A DNA stretch of 64,000 nt from a virus (taxonomy: Duplodnaviria > Caudoviricetes), in the IMG/VR virus record IMGVR_UViG_3300049988_000286, positions 32,001 to 96,000 of that record; one strand, given 5' to 3'. The notes below the pieces were generated by a model, which ran no database searches, was not told the DNA's origin, and saw only the letters and a program-made list of their open reading frames with translations. This document shows, in pieces, positions 335-41,628 of the stretch; the first letter of the stretch is position 1, and each line of letters begins with the position of its first letter. The position numbers and the translations under genes were made by a program.

Positions 335-841
335 ATGTCTGAACTCTACCCCAGCGATCCCGCGCTACGCCAACGCCTCAATAGCTTCGCGCTATCCCCG
401 ACCCTCAACTCCTTGGTGGGTTGGGTGATGCCCCGTGGCGGCATCGTCTTCACGGAAACGCATGAGCATCGGTCGGCTTTGCCCAAGGAGTGGCAGGATC
501 GCTACACGGAACTCCTCCACGCAGCGGAGCGCGCGATCGAGGATCAGTTGGAGGAGGAGTATCGCCTCTACCCCGACGAGCATCCCGCCTATCATCGTTT
601 CGATGCCGACTCGGATGCCGACGATGCCTTGCTGCGACAACTCGCCGAGGAGGGCTACATGCGCTTCGGTATCTGGCGCACCGGCGGGGATGTCCGCATG
701 GAAGTGACCGCCACCCCGGCGTTGGTGAAGCGCCATGATCTCGCCGTGCGTGAATTAGTCTCGGAGGCCTTGGTGGAAGCCGTTTACCTCGACGAGATTA
801 CGCAATATGGAACGCGGCGTAAGCGTCTCCGAGGGTATTGA
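335..841 (+). CDS. hypothetical protein
   Basis: ORF with SD and upstream promoter. Confidence 0.75.
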   Translation: MSELYPSDPALRQRLNSFALSPTLNSLVGWVMPRGGIVFTETHEHRSALPKEWQDRYTELLHAAERAIEDQLEEEYRLYPDEHPAYHRFDADSDADDALLRQLAEEGYMRFGIWRTGGDVRMEVTATPALVKRHDLAVRELVSEALVEAVYLDEITQYGTRRKRLRGY

Positions 842-870
842 TTTCAGTCTCAACATTCAGAGGAAGTATC

Positions 871-1329
871 ATGAACGACGCAGCACAGCGTTTCCGCGCC
901 TCGTTGGAGAAGCGCATCGCCGAGCATCCCAAGGTGGAACCCCACCCCTCCCTCTGTCCGCCGCGTGCGGGCGGGCGTTGGCCGTGGCCGTTCTTCCGTC
1001 TCTCGAACGGGTTCGAGATCGAGTTGAACGAAGTCCTGCGGGTGCGATGCTTGCGAGACTTCGATGGATCGCAGGGTGCGGTGGCTCGCGTCGGTGATGT
1101 GATCGCAGTCCGCGCGGAGCCTCGTTGGTTGGAGTTGGTCAAGTTCGGCCGGGGCAATCGTCGCTACCTCAATGTTCAGACGCCCGCGATCGAGGGTCGG
1201 GACTTCGAGGTCATCGCGAGCGAGAAGATGTGGCTCATCAATGATCAGGCGCGATCGATGGCGGGTATGACCGACGAGGCATTGGCTGCTCGTCAGGAGC
1301 GTGAATGCGGACCCCATACGCAGGATTGA
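871..1329 (+). CDS. hypothetical protein
   Basis: ORF, GAGGA SD before ATG 871. Confidence 0.7.
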   Translation: MNDAAQRFRASLEKRIAEHPKVEPHPSLCPPRAGGRWPWPFFRLSNGFEIELNEVLRVRCLRDFDGSQGAVARVGDVIAVRAEPRWLELVKFGRGNRRYLNVQTPAIEGRDFEVIASEKMWLINDQARSMAGMTDEALAARQERECGPHTQD

Positions 1330-1363
1330 AACAGCGCGTCGCGATCGAGCAGAAGCGGCGTCG

Positions 1364-1693
1364 TTAGTCCGAGTACTTCTCCATGACGCGCTTGATATCG
1401 GCGAAGAATGCGGAAATCTGGCGTGCATCACCATTGATGGTGATCGGAACCGTCTTGGAGAGGAAACCACTAGGCGCGCCGATCTCAACATCAGTGAGAC
1501 CGAATTTCTTTGCGGCGAGGCGCTGAAGCGTCGTAGGCAGCGTCGGGCTCCAGTGAATGCGCCCAATCTCCAACGAGGTGCGAACCCGAGCCGTGCCGGG
1601 ATGACCGGCGAGACGATCGATCGCTGTATCCATATCGAGGATCGGTGCCTCTTCGAGGACGCTTTCGTTGATGATGTTGATGAAATTTCGCAT
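1364..1693 (-). CDS. hypothetical late protein (MRNFINIINES...)
   Basis: ATG 4 nt after TAAATA (1698-1703, minus). Confidence 0.65.
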   Translation of the reverse strand: MRNFINIINESVLEEAPILDMDTAIDRLAGHPGTARVRTSLEIGRIHWSPTLPTTLQRLAAKKFGLTDVEIGAPSGFLSKTVPITINGDARQISAFFADIKRVMEKYSD

Positions 1694-1729
1694 ATGGTAT
1701 TTAGCGTTCGGACCGGCAGGAGAGCAACC

Positions 1730-1948
1730 ATGAAGACCGCCAGTGAGATCATTGCACTGATCCGCGAATACCAAACCGGCTACGCGGCGCAGGACAACAT
1801 CGAGGCGGCTCGGGTCGCCAAGGTTCTGGCTCGACTGCTCGATGAAGCAGAGGGGAGGAAGCCCCCCATGCAGCCACTGCCGTCCGATGTCGTGACTGGA
1901 ACGCCGAATATCGCAGAACTGCGAGAGAAATACTTCGGGAGTGATTGA
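1730..1948 (+). CDS. hypothetical protein
   Basis: AGGAG SD, ATG 1730. Confidence 0.6.
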   Translation: MKTASEIIALIREYQTGYAAQDNIEAARVAKVLARLLDEAEGRKPPMQPLPSDVVTGTPNIAELREKYFGSD

Positions 1949-1973
1949 CACAGTTCGCATCATGGTGTAGTTC
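1945..1973 (+). promoter_or_regulatory. sigma70-like early promoter
   Basis: TTGACA-N17-TAGTTC. Confidence 0.5.
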
Positions 1974-1994
1974 GCTCTATGAAAGGAATCACCC

Positions 1995-2306
1995 ATGAAG
2001 CAGTTTTTCACCAACCTCCGCGCCCGCATCGAGGGTGCCTCGATCCAGACTCGTTCCATCTACGCGATCGTGACCGCGCTGATCGGCATCACGATCAACT
2101 TCGCCTTCGCCTCGGTCTGCTTCGCGGCGGTGCGGGCGTTCTGGCCCCTGTCGGCGGGCGGGACTGCATGGGGTCTGGGCTTCATGGCTTTCCTCGTCGC
2201 CATCGAGGTCTTGAAGAATGTTGCCAAGGCGGTGATTTCGATTATCTTCGCCTTCCGTGACCTCGCGGTGCAGCGTCGTCTCGATCTTTTCGTAAAGGGT
2301 GCCTGA
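1995..2306 (+). CDS. membrane protein
   Basis: two to three hydrophobic segments; AAGGA SD. Confidence 0.75.
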   Translation: MKQFFTNLRARIEGASIQTRSIYAIVTALIGITINFAFASVCFAAVRAFWPLSAGGTAWGLGFMAFLVAIEVLKNVAKAVISIIFAFRDLAVQRRLDLFVKGA

Positions 2307-2788
2307 TGTCCGATCTTCCTGCCGGTTACCTCGTCCGCGTCACCTCGTGGGAGAATGATGCCGATAATTACAAGACCGTGGAACGGGCAGGTTTGAGCGA
2401 GAGCGACGCGCGGTTCTTCATCCGGGCCGCGCAGCTTTTCCGGAGCGTGAACAGGCACGAGTTCGGCGACGCGCCGCGCTTCGGTAATGCGGACATTCGA
2501 GGCGATCGTCCCGGTCGTGCAAACGACGCCGGACTTCCCGACGCCTTGGAGGCGCTGGTGCGCGAGCACAAAGCTGTGTTCGGATCGGTTCCCCAATATT
2601 GGGATACCGACACGTGGAAGAACGAGGCCCAGCACGCCGAGTACCGCGTGGACTACACCCATGAGGTCTTCTATGACCTGATCGGGACGTGGGCGGAAGG
2701 CGAGTATTGGCGCGTCTATGAATCGCACGTGGTGTTGTTCGTGCCAGAGGTGATTCGTGATGTGACGGCCTCGTTCGCCACGGGATGA
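2306..2788 (+). CDS. hypothetical protein
   Basis: coupled ORF (TGATG). Confidence 0.75.
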   Translation: MSDLPAGYLVRVTSWENDADNYKTVERAGLSESDARFFIRAAQLFRSVNRHEFGDAPRFGNADIRGDRPGRANDAGLPDALEALVREHKAVFGSVPQYWDTDTWKNEAQHAEYRVDYTHEVFYDLIGTWAEGEYWRVYESHVVLFVPEVIRDVTASFATG

Positions 2789-3012
2789 GGTTGCTCGCCT
2801 CGCCTCCGATGCCATTCGGGCAGCAGCACATCGTTGCCATCCGGGGCTTTCGCGATCGTTGCCGCACAGCCTTGAAGCATTGGCTTCGAGAGAATGGATA
2901 TCTGACCGCAGAGATCGGGATGGATATTGGCATATGGTGCAACGTCTATTTCACCGATTCCCATGAGGCCGATCTGTTCTATCTCACCTTTGCGTCGGTG
3001 AGGACGCTGTGA
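2785..3012 (+). CDS. small paralog-family protein (HWLRENG...EADLFYLTF)
   Basis: family motif, coupled. Confidence 0.65.
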   Translation: MRLLASPPMPFGQQHIVAIRGFRDRCRTALKHWLRENGYLTAEIGMDIGIWCNVYFTDSHEADLFYLTFASVRTL

Positions 3013-3236
3013 TTCAGTCACGGCGGATATTCTTCCACGGGTATGCGAAAAGGTGGGCATGTGCCTTGCGTGAACCGAGCCTCCGGGTTTCTTCGACCGC
3101 GATGGATGTGCGTCGATGGCTAGATCAGAATGGTATGCCGCAAGCCAGCGTGGGTAACTCCAAAATGATCTGGTTCGATAGCGAGGATGACGCTGCGTTG
3201 TTCCATCTCGCCTTCGTGACCGGTATGGAATTATAG
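3009..3236 (+). CDS. small paralog-family protein (RWLDQNG...DDAALFHLAF)
   Basis: family motif, coupled. Confidence 0.65.
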   Translation: MIQSRRIFFHGYAKRWACALREPSLRVSSTAMDVRRWLDQNGMPQASVGNSKMIWFDSEDDAALFHLAFVTGMEL

Positions 3237-3285
3237 TCTGGACAGTTCGCTATAATCATTTATACAGCGGGTAAGGAGAATCGAG

Positions 3286-3465
3286 ATGTCCAAGTCCCGC
3301 CAGCGTCTCACCTACGGCTTCGCCCTCGGTCAGGATCGCATCGTCGTCACCATCACCGAGGCAAAGTTTGGGTGGACAGTTGTTCGCCGCCGTAACGGTG
3401 TCGAGGAGAGCCGTGAAACCGCCATGGGTTCGCTCATGACGGTGCTCGCGGAGGCCACGTCTTGA
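3286..3465 (+). CDS. small hypothetical protein (59 aa)
   Basis: TAAGGAG SD; upstream TGGACA-N16-TATACA. Confidence 0.6.
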   Translation: MSKSRQRLTYGFALGQDRIVVTITEAKFGWTVVRRRNGVEESRETAMGSLMTVLAEATS

Positions 3466-3496
3466 CGCTATTGTCGAACTGTGAGACAAGCGGGCG

Positions 3497-3904
3497 ATGA
3501 ACCCTAGTGACGAACGCCCCGCGTGGTGGACCGCCTTCATCGATCGCTTCGAGCGTCTCGACAACTTGATCGAGCAGGGCGTCAGTGATGCCGACGATGA
3601 GCAGCTTGCCATCAACACGTCCTCGCAATTCCATGCGCAGAGGTTCGCGGCCCAATTGATCGACTGTCGAAGGCCGGGCGTCTTCATCGACCTTAACGGT
3701 TGCGTGCGATTGGTCTGGGACGCCGGGGAGGAACAGGTCGCGCTGCTCTTCAATCCAAGGGGGAGGGTAGGGTTTGTCTTCCTGCGCCTCGATGGTGAGG
3801 GGGCGGTGGATGATCTTCGCGGAACAGTCCGCGCATCGCTCATCATGCTGTTGATCGAGCGATTTGAGATCAAGCACGTGATGCTCGACAGGAGTGACCA
3901 ATGA
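3497..3904 (+). CDS. hypothetical protein
   Basis: ORF in co-oriented run. Confidence 0.65.
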   Translation: MNPSDERPAWWTAFIDRFERLDNLIEQGVSDADDEQLAINTSSQFHAQRFAAQLIDCRRPGVFIDLNGCVRLVWDAGEEQVALLFNPRGRVGFVFLRLDGEGAVDDLRGTVRASLIMLLIERFEIKHVMLDRSDQ

Positions 3905-4086
3905 TCGACTTCCATGATTTTGAAAGAGATGGCCAAGGGCGTCCCTACCCCAACGATACACCGGAGCAGTTGCGCGCACGCTCGGAAGACCTTCGCGAGA
4001 GGATCGCGGCCCGGCAGCGTGGCGAGTGGCCCACCTTTCGCCTCCCGACCAAAGGTGATGTGGGCGGCGAGATACCGGGCGGTTGA
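3901..4086 (+). CDS. small hypothetical protein
   Basis: AGGAG SD. Confidence 0.55.
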   Translation: MIDFHDFERDGQGRPYPNDTPEQLRARSEDLRERIAARQRGEWPTFRLPTKGDVGGEIPGG

Positions 4087-4313
4087 GATGTTGCTGACCG
4101 GGCTCACCGGCTATCTTGTTTCCCTCGGCAGTGTCGGCCATGAACAAGTAAGGCAAGGGGTCTCTCACCCCCGCGACTGACGGCACCTAGTGCCTCCCAG
4201 AACCTCCGACCGGATTGTGTGTCCATCCACACCGCAGCAACCCAGTGACGATACCCGCGACAGGGGCGATTTTCAATATTGCCCAGCGCCACGGAAGCGC
4301 CTATCACGTCATT

Positions 4314-4455
4314 GTCGGGGAAGCGCATGGAGGTCGTTCCTTCTTTGCATGATAAGCCCGAGGTTGCAGGTTCGAGCCCTGCCTCTCCAACCTGATGGAG
4401 GGTAGCTCAATTGGTAGAGCGCGGAAAAAATACGGTTCCGATTTGCTTCCCCGGC
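4314..4455 (+). ncRNA. circularly permuted tRNA-Ile(GAT)-like RNA (3' half precedes 5' half)
   Basis: 3' half GATAA-GCCCG-AGGTT-GCAGG-TTCGAGC-CCTGC-CTCTCCA-A (4351-4390) then 5' half TGGAGGG-TA-GCTC-AATTGGTA-GAGC-G-CGG (4396-4424); acceptor strands pair 7/7; flanks pair 11/11 (4314-4324 with 4445-4455). Confidence 0.7.
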
Positions 4456-4464
4456 CCTTGACCG

Positions 4465-4485
4465 AACTACCCCAGCGGGGTAGTT
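4465..4485 (+). terminator. perfect hairpin after the permuted RNA (terminator or processing site)
   Basis: AACTACCCC-AGC-GGGGTAGTT. Confidence 0.4.
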
Positions 4486-4658
4486 GAAGGCATGACCTAT
4501 ACCCAAACCGCTCCCGGTGGCGCGACGCGCGTTTTCGAGACCTTCATCGACGATGCGGGCTCGACGTGGCTGATCATCATCGAGGGGGAGGATCGGCATG
4601 AAATGTGCCTCAAGCCCAGCGATGTCATGGGTCTGGGGCGTATCTTGGGATTTGGGCG

Positions 4659-5144
4659 ATGAAGCCCCTCTGGCTTTATCGCCCGCTCCTCAACATTCGC
4701 CCGGTGCTGGAATTTGCGCAACGCGTTGGCGTCACCAAAGTGATGCCGCCCGAGCATCTTCATGCCACGCTCGCGACCGTCCGTCCCCCGTGCGACTGGG
4801 ATGACCTCGCACTCGAAACCGACGAGATCATCATCCCGGCGGGGATGAAGAAAATCCAGATTTTCGGCTTCCACGCCAAGGGACTGACCTTCGGCCACGA
4901 GCGGTTCTCCTCTCGCCATGCCGAGTTGGCGCGCCTCTACCCTGCGATGGATCACGCCTCGTTGCTGCGTCCCCACGTCACCCTCTACCGTGGGGGCAAG
5001 ATGCCGCGCGGAGATGTCGGCTACGAGGGTGAACTTGTTTTCGGTCCCGAGATCGCCGTTGAATTCGATGAGGTAGAAGCGCGTGGCATCAAGCACGTCA
5101 AACTCGCCGATTACCTTAATGCACGCGAGGACGCCTCGGTGTAG
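4659..5144 (+). CDS. 2H phosphoesterase, Acb1/T4 gp57B-like (anti-CBASS candidate)
   Basis: two HxT motifs (LHATL, PHVTL), P-x-D-W, and C-terminal G-E-L-V-F-G-P-E. Confidence 0.7.
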   Translation: MKPLWLYRPLLNIRPVLEFAQRVGVTKVMPPEHLHATLATVRPPCDWDDLALETDEIIIPAGMKKIQIFGFHAKGLTFGHERFSSRHAELARLYPAMDHASLLRPHVTLYRGGKMPRGDVGYEGELVFGPEIAVEFDEVEARGIKHVKLADYLNAREDASV

Positions 5145-5153
5145 GTTCGTGGT

Positions 5154-5759
5154 ATGACCATCAATCAAGAACTCGTCGTCTACGACGCCGCTCTCCGCGC
5201 TGACTCTACCCTTCACGATCAGATGATCGAGCATGGCGGTGTCTCCGCCCCTGTGCGGCACCTCGCCGGGGCTGATGTCCCAGATGAGTATTTCAGTGAG
5301 GCGATCAGCGCGATGGTGCAGGAGACCATCGTCATGCTGTTCTACGATCTCCACCGTGCTGCTCGACGACTACGACCCACTGCGACGCTGAATTGGTCGG
5401 CTACCTTCTCCGACGAGATAGAGCTTAAATCCATCCCGGCAAAGATGGTACTAACCGCCAAGGCCTTGAGCGATGATGCCATCTTCGTCGTATCTCCGAC
5501 TGTTCTCACGATCGTTCAGTCCGCTGGTGCATTGCAGCGAGTAGAGAATATGCGCCGCGACGAGAATGAATACTCGATCTCTGGTCACCGAGTATTCATC
5601 GACCCCTATGCTGATGATCAAGCAGCCATCATCGTGGCACAGCGGGGCTGGTTCCATTTCAGCAATGGTTCAATCCACAGTGATGGGCTCATGATGAAAA
5701 ACGACATCGTGACCTCGCTGGTCCCCGATCGTATTGCCATTATCGATCTGGTGCAGTAA
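5154..5759 (+). CDS. degenerate T4 gp23/gp24-like capsid paralog fragment
   Basis: FVVSPTV...SGHRVFIDPYADD resembles the gp23 C-terminal region; only 201 aa. Confidence 0.4.
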   Translation: MTINQELVVYDAALRADSTLHDQMIEHGGVSAPVRHLAGADVPDEYFSEAISAMVQETIVMLFYDLHRAARRLRPTATLNWSATFSDEIELKSIPAKMVLTAKALSDDAIFVVSPTVLTIVQSAGALQRVENMRRDENEYSISGHRVFIDPYADDQAAIIVAQRGWFHFSNGSIHSDGLMMKNDIVTSLVPDRIAIIDLVQ

Positions 5760-5794
5760 CGCCGTGGTGTTGCACCGGGCACCCCGAGATACGT

Positions 5795-5892
5795 GAGGCT
5801 AGCGTATGCAAGGTTTGAGAGAGGCTCCAAGCCCGGCCGATCAGGGATCAAATCCTGAACTGGAGCGGTTCGATTCCGTAGATGCTTCACCA
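5795..5892 (+). ncRNA. possible degenerate tRNA-like RNA
   Basis: GCGG-TTCGATT-CCGT T-arm, GAGGC/GCTTC partial acceptor, A-CCA end, two internal hairpins. Confidence 0.3.
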
Positions 5893-5930
5893 TTCCAAAT
5901 CGATCTCGGCATCGACGCCAATGGCCAGAT

Positions 5931-6078
5931 CATGCAATTCAGTGATTTTCAAAGGCAGAGATCGGCTGTCTTGCAATGGTGCAATGATAATTTACCCGCA
6001 GGGTCTTGGCGCTACGGCTACCAAGCGCTTTTACTCGATCGTGAGCAAGACTATATACTCTATACATTAAGCTTTTAG
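5931..6078 (+). CDS. small paralog-family protein (QWCNDNL...EQDYILYTLSF); start approximate
   Basis: family motif; start codon uncertain. Confidence 0.5.
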
Positions 6079-6174
6079 GAGGTTGTTTATGTCATCGCGG
6101 GACGCCGGTTAAGTAAAAGGTTTCAGAAGATCGCTCCCCTCTACGCGTATTTCGCGCGTGATTGGCAGCACTGT

Positions 6175-6480
6175 ATGGACTTCACCCCATACGCTCTGCA
6201 AGACCTCTACGTCTATGAGAGCACAGGTCGCGGTCATGTTTGCGCGTGCAACGGTTACGCACACGGCAAAAAGATGATGGATGTAAACCTCGCACAATGG
6301 CGCGAGGACATGTGGAAGACACTTTGGCCATGGGAACTCTACGAAGACCCCCATCTGCCTGATTGGTGGCTGGACAAAGTATTGGGGTTCGAGGGGAGTC
6401 GCCTCTATGGTGTTGACTCCCTTGATCGTCATCCTATACTTGGGACAGCACAGGTGCCGTCCATAGGTGAGACGGAATAG
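6175..6480 (+). CDS. hypothetical protein
   Basis: ORF. Confidence 0.6.
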   Translation: MDFTPYALQDLYVYESTGRGHVCACNGYAHGKKMMDVNLAQWREDMWKTLWPWELYEDPHLPDWWLDKVLGFEGSRLYGVDSLDRHPILGTAQVPSIGETE

Positions 6481-6491
6481 AGGGGGCGGAG

Positions 6492-7121
6492 ATGTTCGGA
6501 CAGTATCGCTCCCTTACCGTCAAAGAGGGACTCGGCTGGCTCAAGACTGGTGCCCCTTCACGCGAGACGATGCTCCTGCCGCACCCCACGGACTATTTCG
6601 ATCTCGACTTTGAGGAGCACGCATCCCGCTACAGGATGCGGGGTAGCTGGGTCCATACCTTGAGTTTCGCCATCCCCTGCCTTGAAGCGATGGAGTGCCT
6701 GAAGGCGCGTTCCGTTGTCGAGGTCGGCGCTGGGACTGGCTACTGGTCGTCCCTCATTGCCCTGCATGGCGGGGATATCATCGCGACCGATATCGAGACA
6801 GGCATATCAGGTTACCGGCACCACATCGGGGCCTTTCATGGTGTGGAGCAACTCTCCGCCACCGAAGCCGCTACCCGCTACCCGGATCGTGATGTCCTTA
6901 CCGTGTGGCCCAATTACGACGAGTCGTGGGCCTATGAGATGGCGTGCACGATTGAGGGAGATCGTCTGCTACATTACGTGGGTGAGGGTTACGGAGGCTG
7001 CACCGCCGACGATGATTTTCACACGCTGATGTCGCGAGAGTTCGATCAGATATCAGAGGTTGCAATTCCGCAGTGGGAGGGTATTCACGATTATCTGACC
7101 ACCTATCGGCGGAAGCGCTGA
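6492..7121 (+). CDS. class I SAM-dependent methyltransferase-like protein
   Basis: VVEVGAGTGYW motif I; GEGYGGCTADDDF. Confidence 0.7.
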   Translation: MFGQYRSLTVKEGLGWLKTGAPSRETMLLPHPTDYFDLDFEEHASRYRMRGSWVHTLSFAIPCLEAMECLKARSVVEVGAGTGYWSSLIALHGGDIIATDIETGISGYRHHIGAFHGVEQLSATEAATRYPDRDVLTVWPNYDESWAYEMACTIEGDRLLHYVGEGYGGCTADDDFHTLMSREFDQISEVAIPQWEGIHDYLTTYRRKR

Positions 7122-7123
7122 AC

Positions 7124-7199
7124 GGTCCCGAAGCTCAACTGGATGAGCGGCCGAATCCTAGTCGGAAGGTTGCGGGTTCGAGTCCCGCCGGGACCGCCA
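7124..7199 (+). tRNA. tRNA-Arg(CCT)
   Basis: cloverleaf GGTCCCG/CGGGACC, loop ATCCTAG, GTTCGAGTC, encoded CCA. Confidence 0.9.
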
Positions 7200-20273: not shown

Positions 20274-20364
20274 GTGTCGGTGGCGGAGTCCGGCCGAACG
20301 CACAAGACTGCAAATCTTGCGAGGGCTTCCCTCCACGCCGGTTCAAATCCGGCCCGATGCTCCA
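20274..20364 (+). tRNA. tRNA-Cys(GCA) with long variable arm
   Basis: CAAGA-CTGCAAA-TCTTG, GAGGG-CTT-CCCTC V-arm, U73, CCA. Confidence 0.85.
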
Positions 20365-29707: not shown

Positions 29708-30240
29708 TCGTCGTCCATCTGCTTCGCTTGGGCGTCTGCGAATAGCTGGTGAAGAAATGGGTCGTCTTTATGTTTGATGACCCAATGCTGGAAGAGGCCG
29801 CGCGCAGAATTACAGCGATGACATGACGGGACTAAATTGGCTAATTCGTTATTCAATTTGTCACCGTCGAGGTGATCAACGTGTATTCCCGAACGTCCTG
29901 ACCATTCGAGCGATTTACCACACCAACGACAACTATGCGACCCTTCGCCAATCGCATCGTACAATACACGTCGATGCTTGTAAACGAAACCGCTCGTAGT
30001 TGCTAGCGGATGATCCGGTCGTGATTGCCATACATATCCATGGCTACTGACACGTTCGGACTCTCCTCTCACGTGAAGCGTGAGCAGTGGATCGCCATGG
30101 CGCTTGAAGCGCGAATAATGTTTATGGCAAAAACCTTTGCCGATGCGATTACTTTCACATCCCTCTACCGAACAGAGGGCCGGTGTCTTCAATGGGGCTC
30201 TGCGTATTCTCTTACCTGATTTTGGAATTCCCTCGGGCAT
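29704..30240 (-). CDS. HNH endonuclease (homing-type)
   Basis: CSVEGC, CRWC, HVDHLDGDKLNN...CHRCN. Confidence 0.85.
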   Translation of the reverse strand: MPEGIPKSGKRIRRAPLKTPALCSVEGCESNRIGKGFCHKHYSRFKRHGDPLLTLHVRGESERVSSHGYVWQSRPDHPLATTSGFVYKHRRVLYDAIGEGSHSCRWCGKSLEWSGRSGIHVDHLDGDKLNNELANLVPSCHRCNSARGLFQHWVIKHKDDPFLHQLFADAQAKQMDDD

Positions 30241-36171: not shown

Positions 36172-36259
36172 TGGTTCTCCCCCGAGGACTCGAACCTCCA
36201 TCCCTTACGAGAGCCCACGATTCAGAGCCGTGTCGCCTTACCAGTTAGCGGAGGGGAGA
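36172..36259 (-). tRNA. tRNA with CTG (Gln) anticodon on a long-variable-arm, Leu-like body
   Basis: TCTCCCC/GGGGAGA-A-CCA; CACGG-CTCTGAA-TCGTG; V-arm TCTC-GTAA-GGGA. Confidence 0.85.
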
Positions 36260-41546: not shown

Positions 41547-41628
41547 GGGCTAGTATCGCCGCCGTTTTCTAAACGGTCGTTAAAAGCGTAATTGGAGTAT
41601 GCGGGTTCGAGTCCTGCCTAGCCCGCCA
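41547..41628 (+). ncRNA. D-armless tRNA-like RNA, TCT (Arg) anticodon, long variable region
   Basis: GGGCTAG/CTAGCCC-G-CCA; GCCGT-TTTCTAA-ACGGT; GCGGG-TTCGAGT-CCTGC; starts 4 nt after TAAATA. Confidence 0.7.

Follow-up and report, generated by a model that had tools for sequence, protein, structure and literature searches.

A probable YrlA-type tRNA mimic in the translation and RNA island of a 499,572-bp phage genome without a detectable Ro60 gene

Y RNAs are defined by their protein partner, Ro60. The tRNA-like Y RNA of bacteria and phages is known as YrlA (Chen et al. 2014, PMC4201824; Wang et al. 2018, bioRxiv 10.1101/312249), for which a structure is available (PDB 6CU1; Wang et al. 2018). 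It is composed of a T arm, a stem-loop at the position of the acceptor stem, a D arm, and paired ends that replace the anticodon arm (PMC4201824); most YrlAs are described as tRNAs in circular permutation whose acceptor stem is closed by a loop (Wang et al. 2018, bioRxiv 10.1101/312249). In M. smegmatis, YrlA has a 7-bp acceptor stem and serves as an RNase P substrate both in vitro and in vivo; the 5′ half is nibbled at its 3′ end before CCA is added, and the two halves of 82 nt and 65 nt stay together with Rsr, while shorter-stemmed YrlAs escape cutting by RNase P (PMC4201824). Earlier searches for YrlA were confined to Ro60-encoding genomes (PMC4201824).

The window analyzed here is a stretch of 64,000 nt, corresponding to G000:32001-96000, where G000 denotes the 499,572-bp virus record; positions without a prefix are those of the window. 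The record is complete according to CheckV, and the sample containing the phage DNA is a leaf metagenome. ARAGORN finds 41 tRNA genes and one permuted tmRNA in this genome. The tRNA-like element of interest lies on the + strand at 4314-4455, surrounded by same-strand ORFs that run from ~335 to 7121, where a tRNA-Arg gene at 7124 ends the series. Around it extends a translation and RNA island with tRNAs, a class I aminoacyl-tRNA synthetase, a second mimic, the permuted tmRNA, and an Rnl1 ligase. On the + strand, no promoter-like site was detected in 3400-5400 and no terminator-like site was called around the element. The neighboring and related features are as follows:

4465-4485, + strand: perfect hairpin of 9 bp with a 3-nt loop and no U tract (sequence)
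4492-4662, + strand: 56-codon ORF with its ATG at 4492
4659-5144, + strand: Acb1-like 2H phosphoesterase, 161 aa (Pfam PF23474, 33 bits)
G000:5736-6278, + strand, outside the window: T4 Rnl1-type RNA ligase
G000:15556-15913, + strand, outside the window: permuted (two-piece type) tmRNA with tag VNDNDIRMAIAA (ARAGORN)
G000:98857-99225, − strand, outside the window: enzyme of the CCA-adding / poly(A) polymerase family
G000:324268-324723, − strand, outside the window: second RNA ligase domain

Between the hairpin at 4465-4485 and the ATG at 4492 lie 6 nt, and the hairpin directly adjoins the purine-rich GAAGG at 4486-4490; it is not called as a terminator and might serve in translational control of the 56-codon ORF or in protection of an RNA end. 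The start of the Acb1-like gene overlaps the stop of this ORF, which places it two genes downstream of the element, and we treat it as context only. Its product has 71 metagenome relatives (42-63% identity), one of which is named “2′-5′ RNA ligase” by one source, and could act against CBASS or as an RNA-end phosphodiesterase. Rnl1, the second ligase, and the CCA-adding-family enzyme may together make up a phage-encoded kit for tRNA repair and maturation; RtcB was not found in the phage genome. The permuted tmRNA, in turn, points to a host with a two-piece tmRNA, for instance an alphaproteobacterium.

The element itself consists of the following parts, all on the + strand:

4314-4324: 5′ strand of the clamp, GUCGGGGAAGC, forming 11 of 11 pairs with 4445-4455, one of them G-U (present in the minimum free energy [MFE] fold)
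4325-4348: predicted small hairpin stacked on the clamp, GCA/UGC and GGAGG/CCUUC with loop UCGUU (MFE fold only)
4358-4360: CCG, 3′ side of a 3-bp anticodon-stem remnant (sequence; aligned by the Rfam YrlA model)
up to 4365: class-I variable loop AGGUU, 5 nt (sequence; aligned by the Rfam YrlA model)
4366-4382: T arm, GCAGG / UUCGAGC / CCUGC, with a 5-bp stem and G53-C61 (sequence, Rfam, MFE, descriptor)
4383-4389: acceptor 3′ strand CUCUCCA (sequence, MFE)
4390-4395: 6-nt loop ACCUGA, whose first bases are a discriminator-like A and then CC (sequence)
4396-4402: acceptor 5′ strand UGGAGGG, forming 7 of 7 pairs with 4383-4389, one of them G-U
4403-4404: U8-A9 (sequence, Rfam)
4405-4420: D arm, GCUC / AAUUGGUA / GAGC, with A14, A15, G18, G19, and A21 (sequence, Rfam)
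4421: G26 (sequence)
4422-4424: CGG, pairing with CCG at 4358-4360 (sequence, MFE)
after CGG, to 4444: A-rich linker, with an alternative hairpin CGGAA/UUCCG possible (sequence, MFE)
4445-4455: 3′ strand of the clamp, GCUUCCCCGGC (sequence, MFE)

The stretch 4314-4455 thus holds a T arm, an acceptor-like hairpin, U8-A9, and a D arm in permuted tRNA order, closed by an 11-bp helix that extends to 12 pairs with G4325-U4444. Unconstrained MFE folding recovers the clamp, the T arm, the acceptor-like hairpin, and the D arm (z = -2.7). The positions that support tRNA tertiary structure are intact (U8, A14, A15:U48, G18G19, G53-C61, U54U55C56, and A58), and U4365 is able to form the Levitt pair with A4410 (A15:U48). 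The 3:70 pair of the acceptor-like stem is G-C. Of the five pairs of an anticodon stem, three can form (C27-G43, G28-C42, and G29-C41), followed by A-C and A-G. Most of this architecture had been described in a sequence-only reading of the window: its permuted tRNA halves with fully paired acceptor strands reappear on inspection of the sequence and in the MFE fold, as does its 11/11 clamp, and both its CGG/CCG pairing and its perfect downstream hairpin are borne out. Its coordinates were right to within one base, the acceptor 3′ strand lying one base earlier than had been claimed. Its multi-stem leader, on the other hand, did not hold, since the upstream sequence folds no better than shuffled versions of it (z = -0.74) and T4309>C in a 98%-identical relative would break the proposed GTGACG/CGTCAT stem.

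We next compared the element with YrlA. In a permissive scan of 3900-4700, the Rfam YrlA model (RF02553) aligned with 4358-4426 at 38.3 bits (E 1e-6), over model positions 23-87 only, covering the T arm, the closed acceptor-like hairpin, and the D arm. This alignment is shorter than the full model and its score lies below the Rfam gathering score of 69; the element is called neither by ARAGORN nor by Rfam at gathering thresholds. In the same interval, neither the tRNA family (RF00005) nor the tmRNA family gave a match at E ≤ 10. The end-pairing stem that stands in place of the anticodon arm is present as the 11-12-bp helix 4314-4325 / 4444-4455. The element thereby shares with YrlA a 5′ stem strand, a T arm, a loop-closed acceptor-like stem, a D arm, and a 3′ stem strand in the same order, as well as the nucleotides of the tRNA elbow, among them an A15:U48-type Levitt pair, and the occurrence in phages, often in more than one copy per genome. 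It differs in lacking the V stem-loop and the GGTTAY box, instead of which it has the 5-nt class-I variable loop, and in that the inserts separating the core from the closing helix are longer. Its genomic setting differs too: no Ro60/TROVE gene lies on the same strand within ~4 kb, or is found elsewhere in the phage, and the surroundings are a tRNA / aminoacyl-tRNA synthetase island. The circularly permuted architecture is thus that of the already described YrlA class and not a new kind of gene, and the element is a real RNA gene of this known class in an atypical, Ro60-less setting. It is probably functional. The complete reading of 4314-4455 (+) as a YrlA-type tRNA mimic, whose fold and class are supported by the tools and whose processing and partner we infer, is the one we favor, with confidence somewhat above even.

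The same phage carries a second element of this type:

G000:31111-31216 (= L002:1501-1606), + strand, 785-890 nt before the start of the window: second YrlA-type mimic (YrlA model, folding)

It is located 5.2 kb upstream of the first element; genes for tRNA-Ala(CGC) and a class I aminoacyl-tRNA synthetase precede it at a distance of 264 nt. It matches the full-length YrlA model with 33 bits (E 1.6e-5). Folding (z = -3.5) gives it a T arm, a UUCG-closed hairpin of 6 bp, a D arm that lacks G18G19, and a closing stem of 9 bp. Apart from the tRNA consensus, no sequence is common to the two mimics or to their flanks; it is the design that recurs between them, not the sequence. With its UUCG-closed hairpin, the second element probably stays in one piece.

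For the first element, the precedent of M. smegmatis YrlA suggests a route of processing. The sequence and folding show a single transcript that folds into the T arm, the loop-closed acceptor-like stem, and the D arm; its T and D loops can form a tRNA elbow, and the RNA's own ends, as an 11-12-bp helix, take the place of the anticodon arm. The element would probably be excised from a longer transcript. Because 7 bp stacked on the 5-bp T stem are followed by A-CC, host RNase P would probably cut at the predicted site 4395|4396. This site has A(-1)/U(+1), compared with the preferred U(-1)/G(+1), and its CC lies inside the closed 6-nt loop; for the cut together with a two-piece product, we put the chances at slightly short of even. 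After trimming, the new 3′ end would be restored to CCA, perhaps by the CCA-adding-family enzyme of the phage, leaving a two-piece, anticodon-less tRNA-like particle joined by the clamp, as in M. smegmatis YrlA. With that RNA the element shares the 7-bp acceptor-like stem, and it also has A-CC after the stem, but M. smegmatis YrlA has Rsr as its protein partner and rsr as its neighboring gene, whereas the phage has no Ro60 gene and the processing of its element is predicted. The element offers a second natural candidate for a tRNA-like RNA that RNase P turns into two pieces, the first being M. smegmatis YrlA. Its role would be to bind a protein that recognizes the tRNA elbow or the acceptor end. 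Since the phage encodes no Ro60, candidate partners would be the Ro60 of the host, if the host has one, or another factor that handles or attacks tRNAs. The roles as a decoy or as a substrate for RNA repair, which the sequence-only reading had put forward, are speculation.

Cutting by RNase P would also be expected if the tRNA-like fold served as a punctuation signal alone, separating the upstream message from that of the 56-codon ORF and the Acb1-like gene without any role in trans, as tRNAs do in polycistronic phage or organellar transcripts. The setting would suit such a signal, with the same-strand ORFs between ~335 and 7121, the tRNA-Arg gene (7124) at their end, the lack of promoter-like or terminator-like sites on the + strand near the element, and the downstream hairpin that abuts the next start codon; moreover, a 7-bp stem with a T arm is a minimal RNase P substrate. 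However, a processing signal would need neither the intact D arm with its elbow nucleotides nor the 11-bp clamp, and the UUCG-closed 6-bp hairpin of the second element should resist RNase P. We consider punctuation as the sole function improbable, although the two roles are compatible with each other.

A second alternative is that the element is a non-functional relic, left by duplication and deletion among phage tRNA genes, in which the 3′ half of one copy came to lie before the 5′ half of the next. Chen et al. caution that YrlA models give false positives on dimeric tRNAs (PMC4201824), and for this reason we built an empirical null from real tandem-tRNA junctions. A pattern scan of IMG/VR for a T loop followed by a D arm returned 124 matches, comprising 84 two-tRNA junctions (as judged by ARAGORN), 22 tRNA-free elements, and 18 one-sided cases. 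None of the 84 real junctions has acceptor strands with at least seven pairs, and two have at least six, while the 22 tRNA-free matches mostly have 6-9 acceptor-like pairs, which makes the architecture common in IMG/VR. A helix of at least 12 bp between the flanks arises in 1.0% of shuffles and in 3/84 real junctions, corresponding to p ~0.01-0.04 for the clamp. Within the 499,572-bp genome, a strict descriptor made up of T arm, perfect hairpin, and D arm matches the 4314-4455 site alone on both strands, whereas the YrlA model has four matches there, two of which fall on a tRNA-Arg/tRNA-Arg junction with 25-27 bits. That real tandem junctions of the phage also match the model speaks for a relic, as do the UGAUAAG before the 3′ half, which resembles an anticodon loop, the similarity of the 5′ part to a phage tRNA, and the failure to find distant orthologs. 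The most similar phage tRNA is a Trp-like one (G000:402970-403045), which shares 23 of 24 bases with the 5′ part of the element; two acceptor pairs differ between them on both sides and still pair, namely 1:72 (A-U vs U-A) and 6:67 (U-G vs G-U). Against a relic stand the seven matched acceptor positions that no real junction attains, the clamp, and the fully intact elbow nucleotides. In addition, the missing halves have left no trace at E ≤ 10, the same design is found in the second, sequence-unrelated element of this genome, and other phages carry similar elements. We judge a relic to be quite improbable, in line with the argument of the sequence-only reading that deletion debris would look different, which both the junction statistics and the lack of any tRNA-model match at E ≤ 10 in 3900-4700 uphold.

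A 98%-identical strain in another sample keeps the arrangement free of gaps, with no change listed inside the element, which lends the YrlA-type reading weak support. Protein, 21-mer, pattern, and blastn searches yielded no ortholog at an informative distance. No useful relatives of the flanking proteins (5154-5759 and 3497-3904) turned up in IMG/VR, and no tRNA-like RNA was found upstream of the relatives of the Acb1-like gene in other contigs (one of them on a 545-kb contig), so that the approach via synteny failed. The exact 21-mer search returned an unrelated tRNA-Asn only. Patterns combining the T arm and the D arm matched tandem tRNAs only in JGI metagenomes and likewise in bacterial genomes, where all matches listed came from Bacillaceae and other Bacillota, and nothing in IMG/VR; blastn against isolated phages returned junctions of the tRNA-Asn|tRNA-Trp type.

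A third possibility is a true permuted tRNA gene, whose ends would be joined, for example by the phage Rnl1, and matured by RNase P and 3′ processing into a working tRNA-Ile(GAU). Permuted tRNA genes exist in some algae and one archaeon (reviewed in PMC4090602), and the element resembles those of Cyanidioschyzon merolae and its relatives in that the 3′ half precedes the 5′ half and a short linker connects the acceptor ends. The phage encodes Rnl1 and a CCA-adding-family enzyme, and ARAGORN accepts the re-ordered halves as a tRNA. This acceptance, however, extends to 85/144 junction variants, with an anticodon that differs by junction, and the isoleucine identity and GAT anticodon assigned by the sequence-only reading are therefore arbitrary, being wholly set by the junction one assumes. 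In the C. merolae genes, the junction is a bulge-helix-bulge, and splicing yields a complete anticodon arm. In the phage element there is no bulge-helix-bulge, the clamp is a plain helix 20-32 nt from the would-be junction, and, because only three of the five anticodon-stem pairs can form, a working tRNA cannot be rebuilt; on the same ground, the ligatable anticodon domain that had been envisaged is not supported. The phage, furthermore, already has tRNA-Ile(GAU) and tRNA-Ile(UAU). We consider a working permuted tRNA highly improbable.

An attachment site or a second two-piece tmRNA can practically be dismissed: attP sites typically carry tRNA 3′ fragments and a genuine permuted tmRNA exists in the same phage (G000:15556-15913), but the genome has no tyrosine integrase anywhere, which excludes an att site, and, as the sequence-only reading had already argued from the acceptor stem, the element is no tmRNA, with ARAGORN and the Rfam tmRNA models silent, 3:70 being G-C and not G-U, and no room for a tag frame or pseudoknots. 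The resemblance to alphaproteobacterial two-piece tmRNA lies in the acceptor 3′ strand preceding the 5′ strand and in the two paired pieces that maturation would give; the element lacks G3:U70, the tag frame, and the pseudoknots, and its D arm is complete. An ORF spanning the element was also considered and rejected, as it would require read-through of three in-frame TAG codons.

Across the complete 499,572-bp genome, Pfam detects no Ro60/TROVE gene, and an unfiltered search with an HMM built on 12 phage Ro60 proteins gave a best E of 0.9. By comparison, a TROVE/Ro60 gene is present in 16/19 searchable virus records with tRNA-free elements, and in 7/8 of the complete ones, a frequency that agrees with the literature. 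Among the 22 tRNA-free elements of the pattern scan, which stem mostly from TROVE-carrying records and include two identical copies, 14 show, 17-26 nt ahead of the T stem, a GG(U/A)UAY box with a V hairpin. The box and the V arm are absent from both elements of the phage and from two elements in other phages (L075 and L269), all of which have a short class-I variable loop instead. The GNCGAA(N)G motif, a proposed Ro60 contact, has no match within 120 nt upstream of the element, but this test discriminates poorly because the motif is absent from all phage elements sampled, most of them from TROVE-carrying records. Elements in records without TROVE are the following:

L075:5341-5396 (IMGVR_UViG_3300044446_000019): element in a complete 64-kb phage
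L269:1501-1612 (IMGVR_UViG_3300035698_012504): element in an 87%-complete 275-kb phage
L013:1682-1751: element in a record that is a 24% fragment, with no GGTTAY box in the flank inspected

Three tRNA genes lie 1.1 kb from the L075 element, whose hairpin loop encodes UCCA; the L269 element lies 1.1 kb from two tRNA genes. These few cases suggest a Ro60-less branch. It is tempting to speculate that the two copies described here, L075, and L269 form a branch of permuted tRNA mimics that does without Ro60 and resides in the tRNA islands of large phages. RNase P would open those of its members that have a 7-bp stem and an encoded (C)CA, giving two-piece tRNA-like particles that lack an anticodon and could serve as cofactors or decoys for tRNA-directed enzymes; in this full form, we regard the proposal as unlikely. 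Were it true, the targets would be host defense nucleases or transferases, or the repair and CCA enzymes of the phage itself. A YrlA-type mimic in complete phages without Ro60 would mean either that the Ro60 of the host is borrowed or that the tRNA-like module has a job of its own, and either reading would broaden the supposed role of the YrlA RNA class. For annotation, sightings of a “permuted tRNA” in phage islands need a prior check against YrlA and tandem-tRNA junctions.

Several tRNA genes of the phage are unusual in themselves. Six tRNAs of 87-91 nt, from normally short-armed families (Cys, Gln, Met, Arg, and Asn), carry an extra hairpin in the variable region:

20274-20364: long tRNA
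36172-36259: long tRNA
G000:25686-25776: long tRNA
G000:26983-27073: long tRNA
G000:27717-27803: long tRNA
G000:28227-28315: long tRNA

At 41547-41625 (+), Rfam reports a tRNA with 29.3 bits where ARAGORN is silent; conversely, the tRNA-Leu(CAG) and tRNA-Gln(CUG) called by ARAGORN at 29857-29932 (−) and 36172-36259 (−) are not reported by Rfam at its gathering score. Two tRNAs, G000:102238-102314 (+) and G000:106351-106425 (−), have a CUA anticodon of the amber suppressor type, and the Trp-like tRNA at G000:402970-403045 (−) has, according to ARAGORN, a four-base anticodon UCCA in an 8-nt loop.
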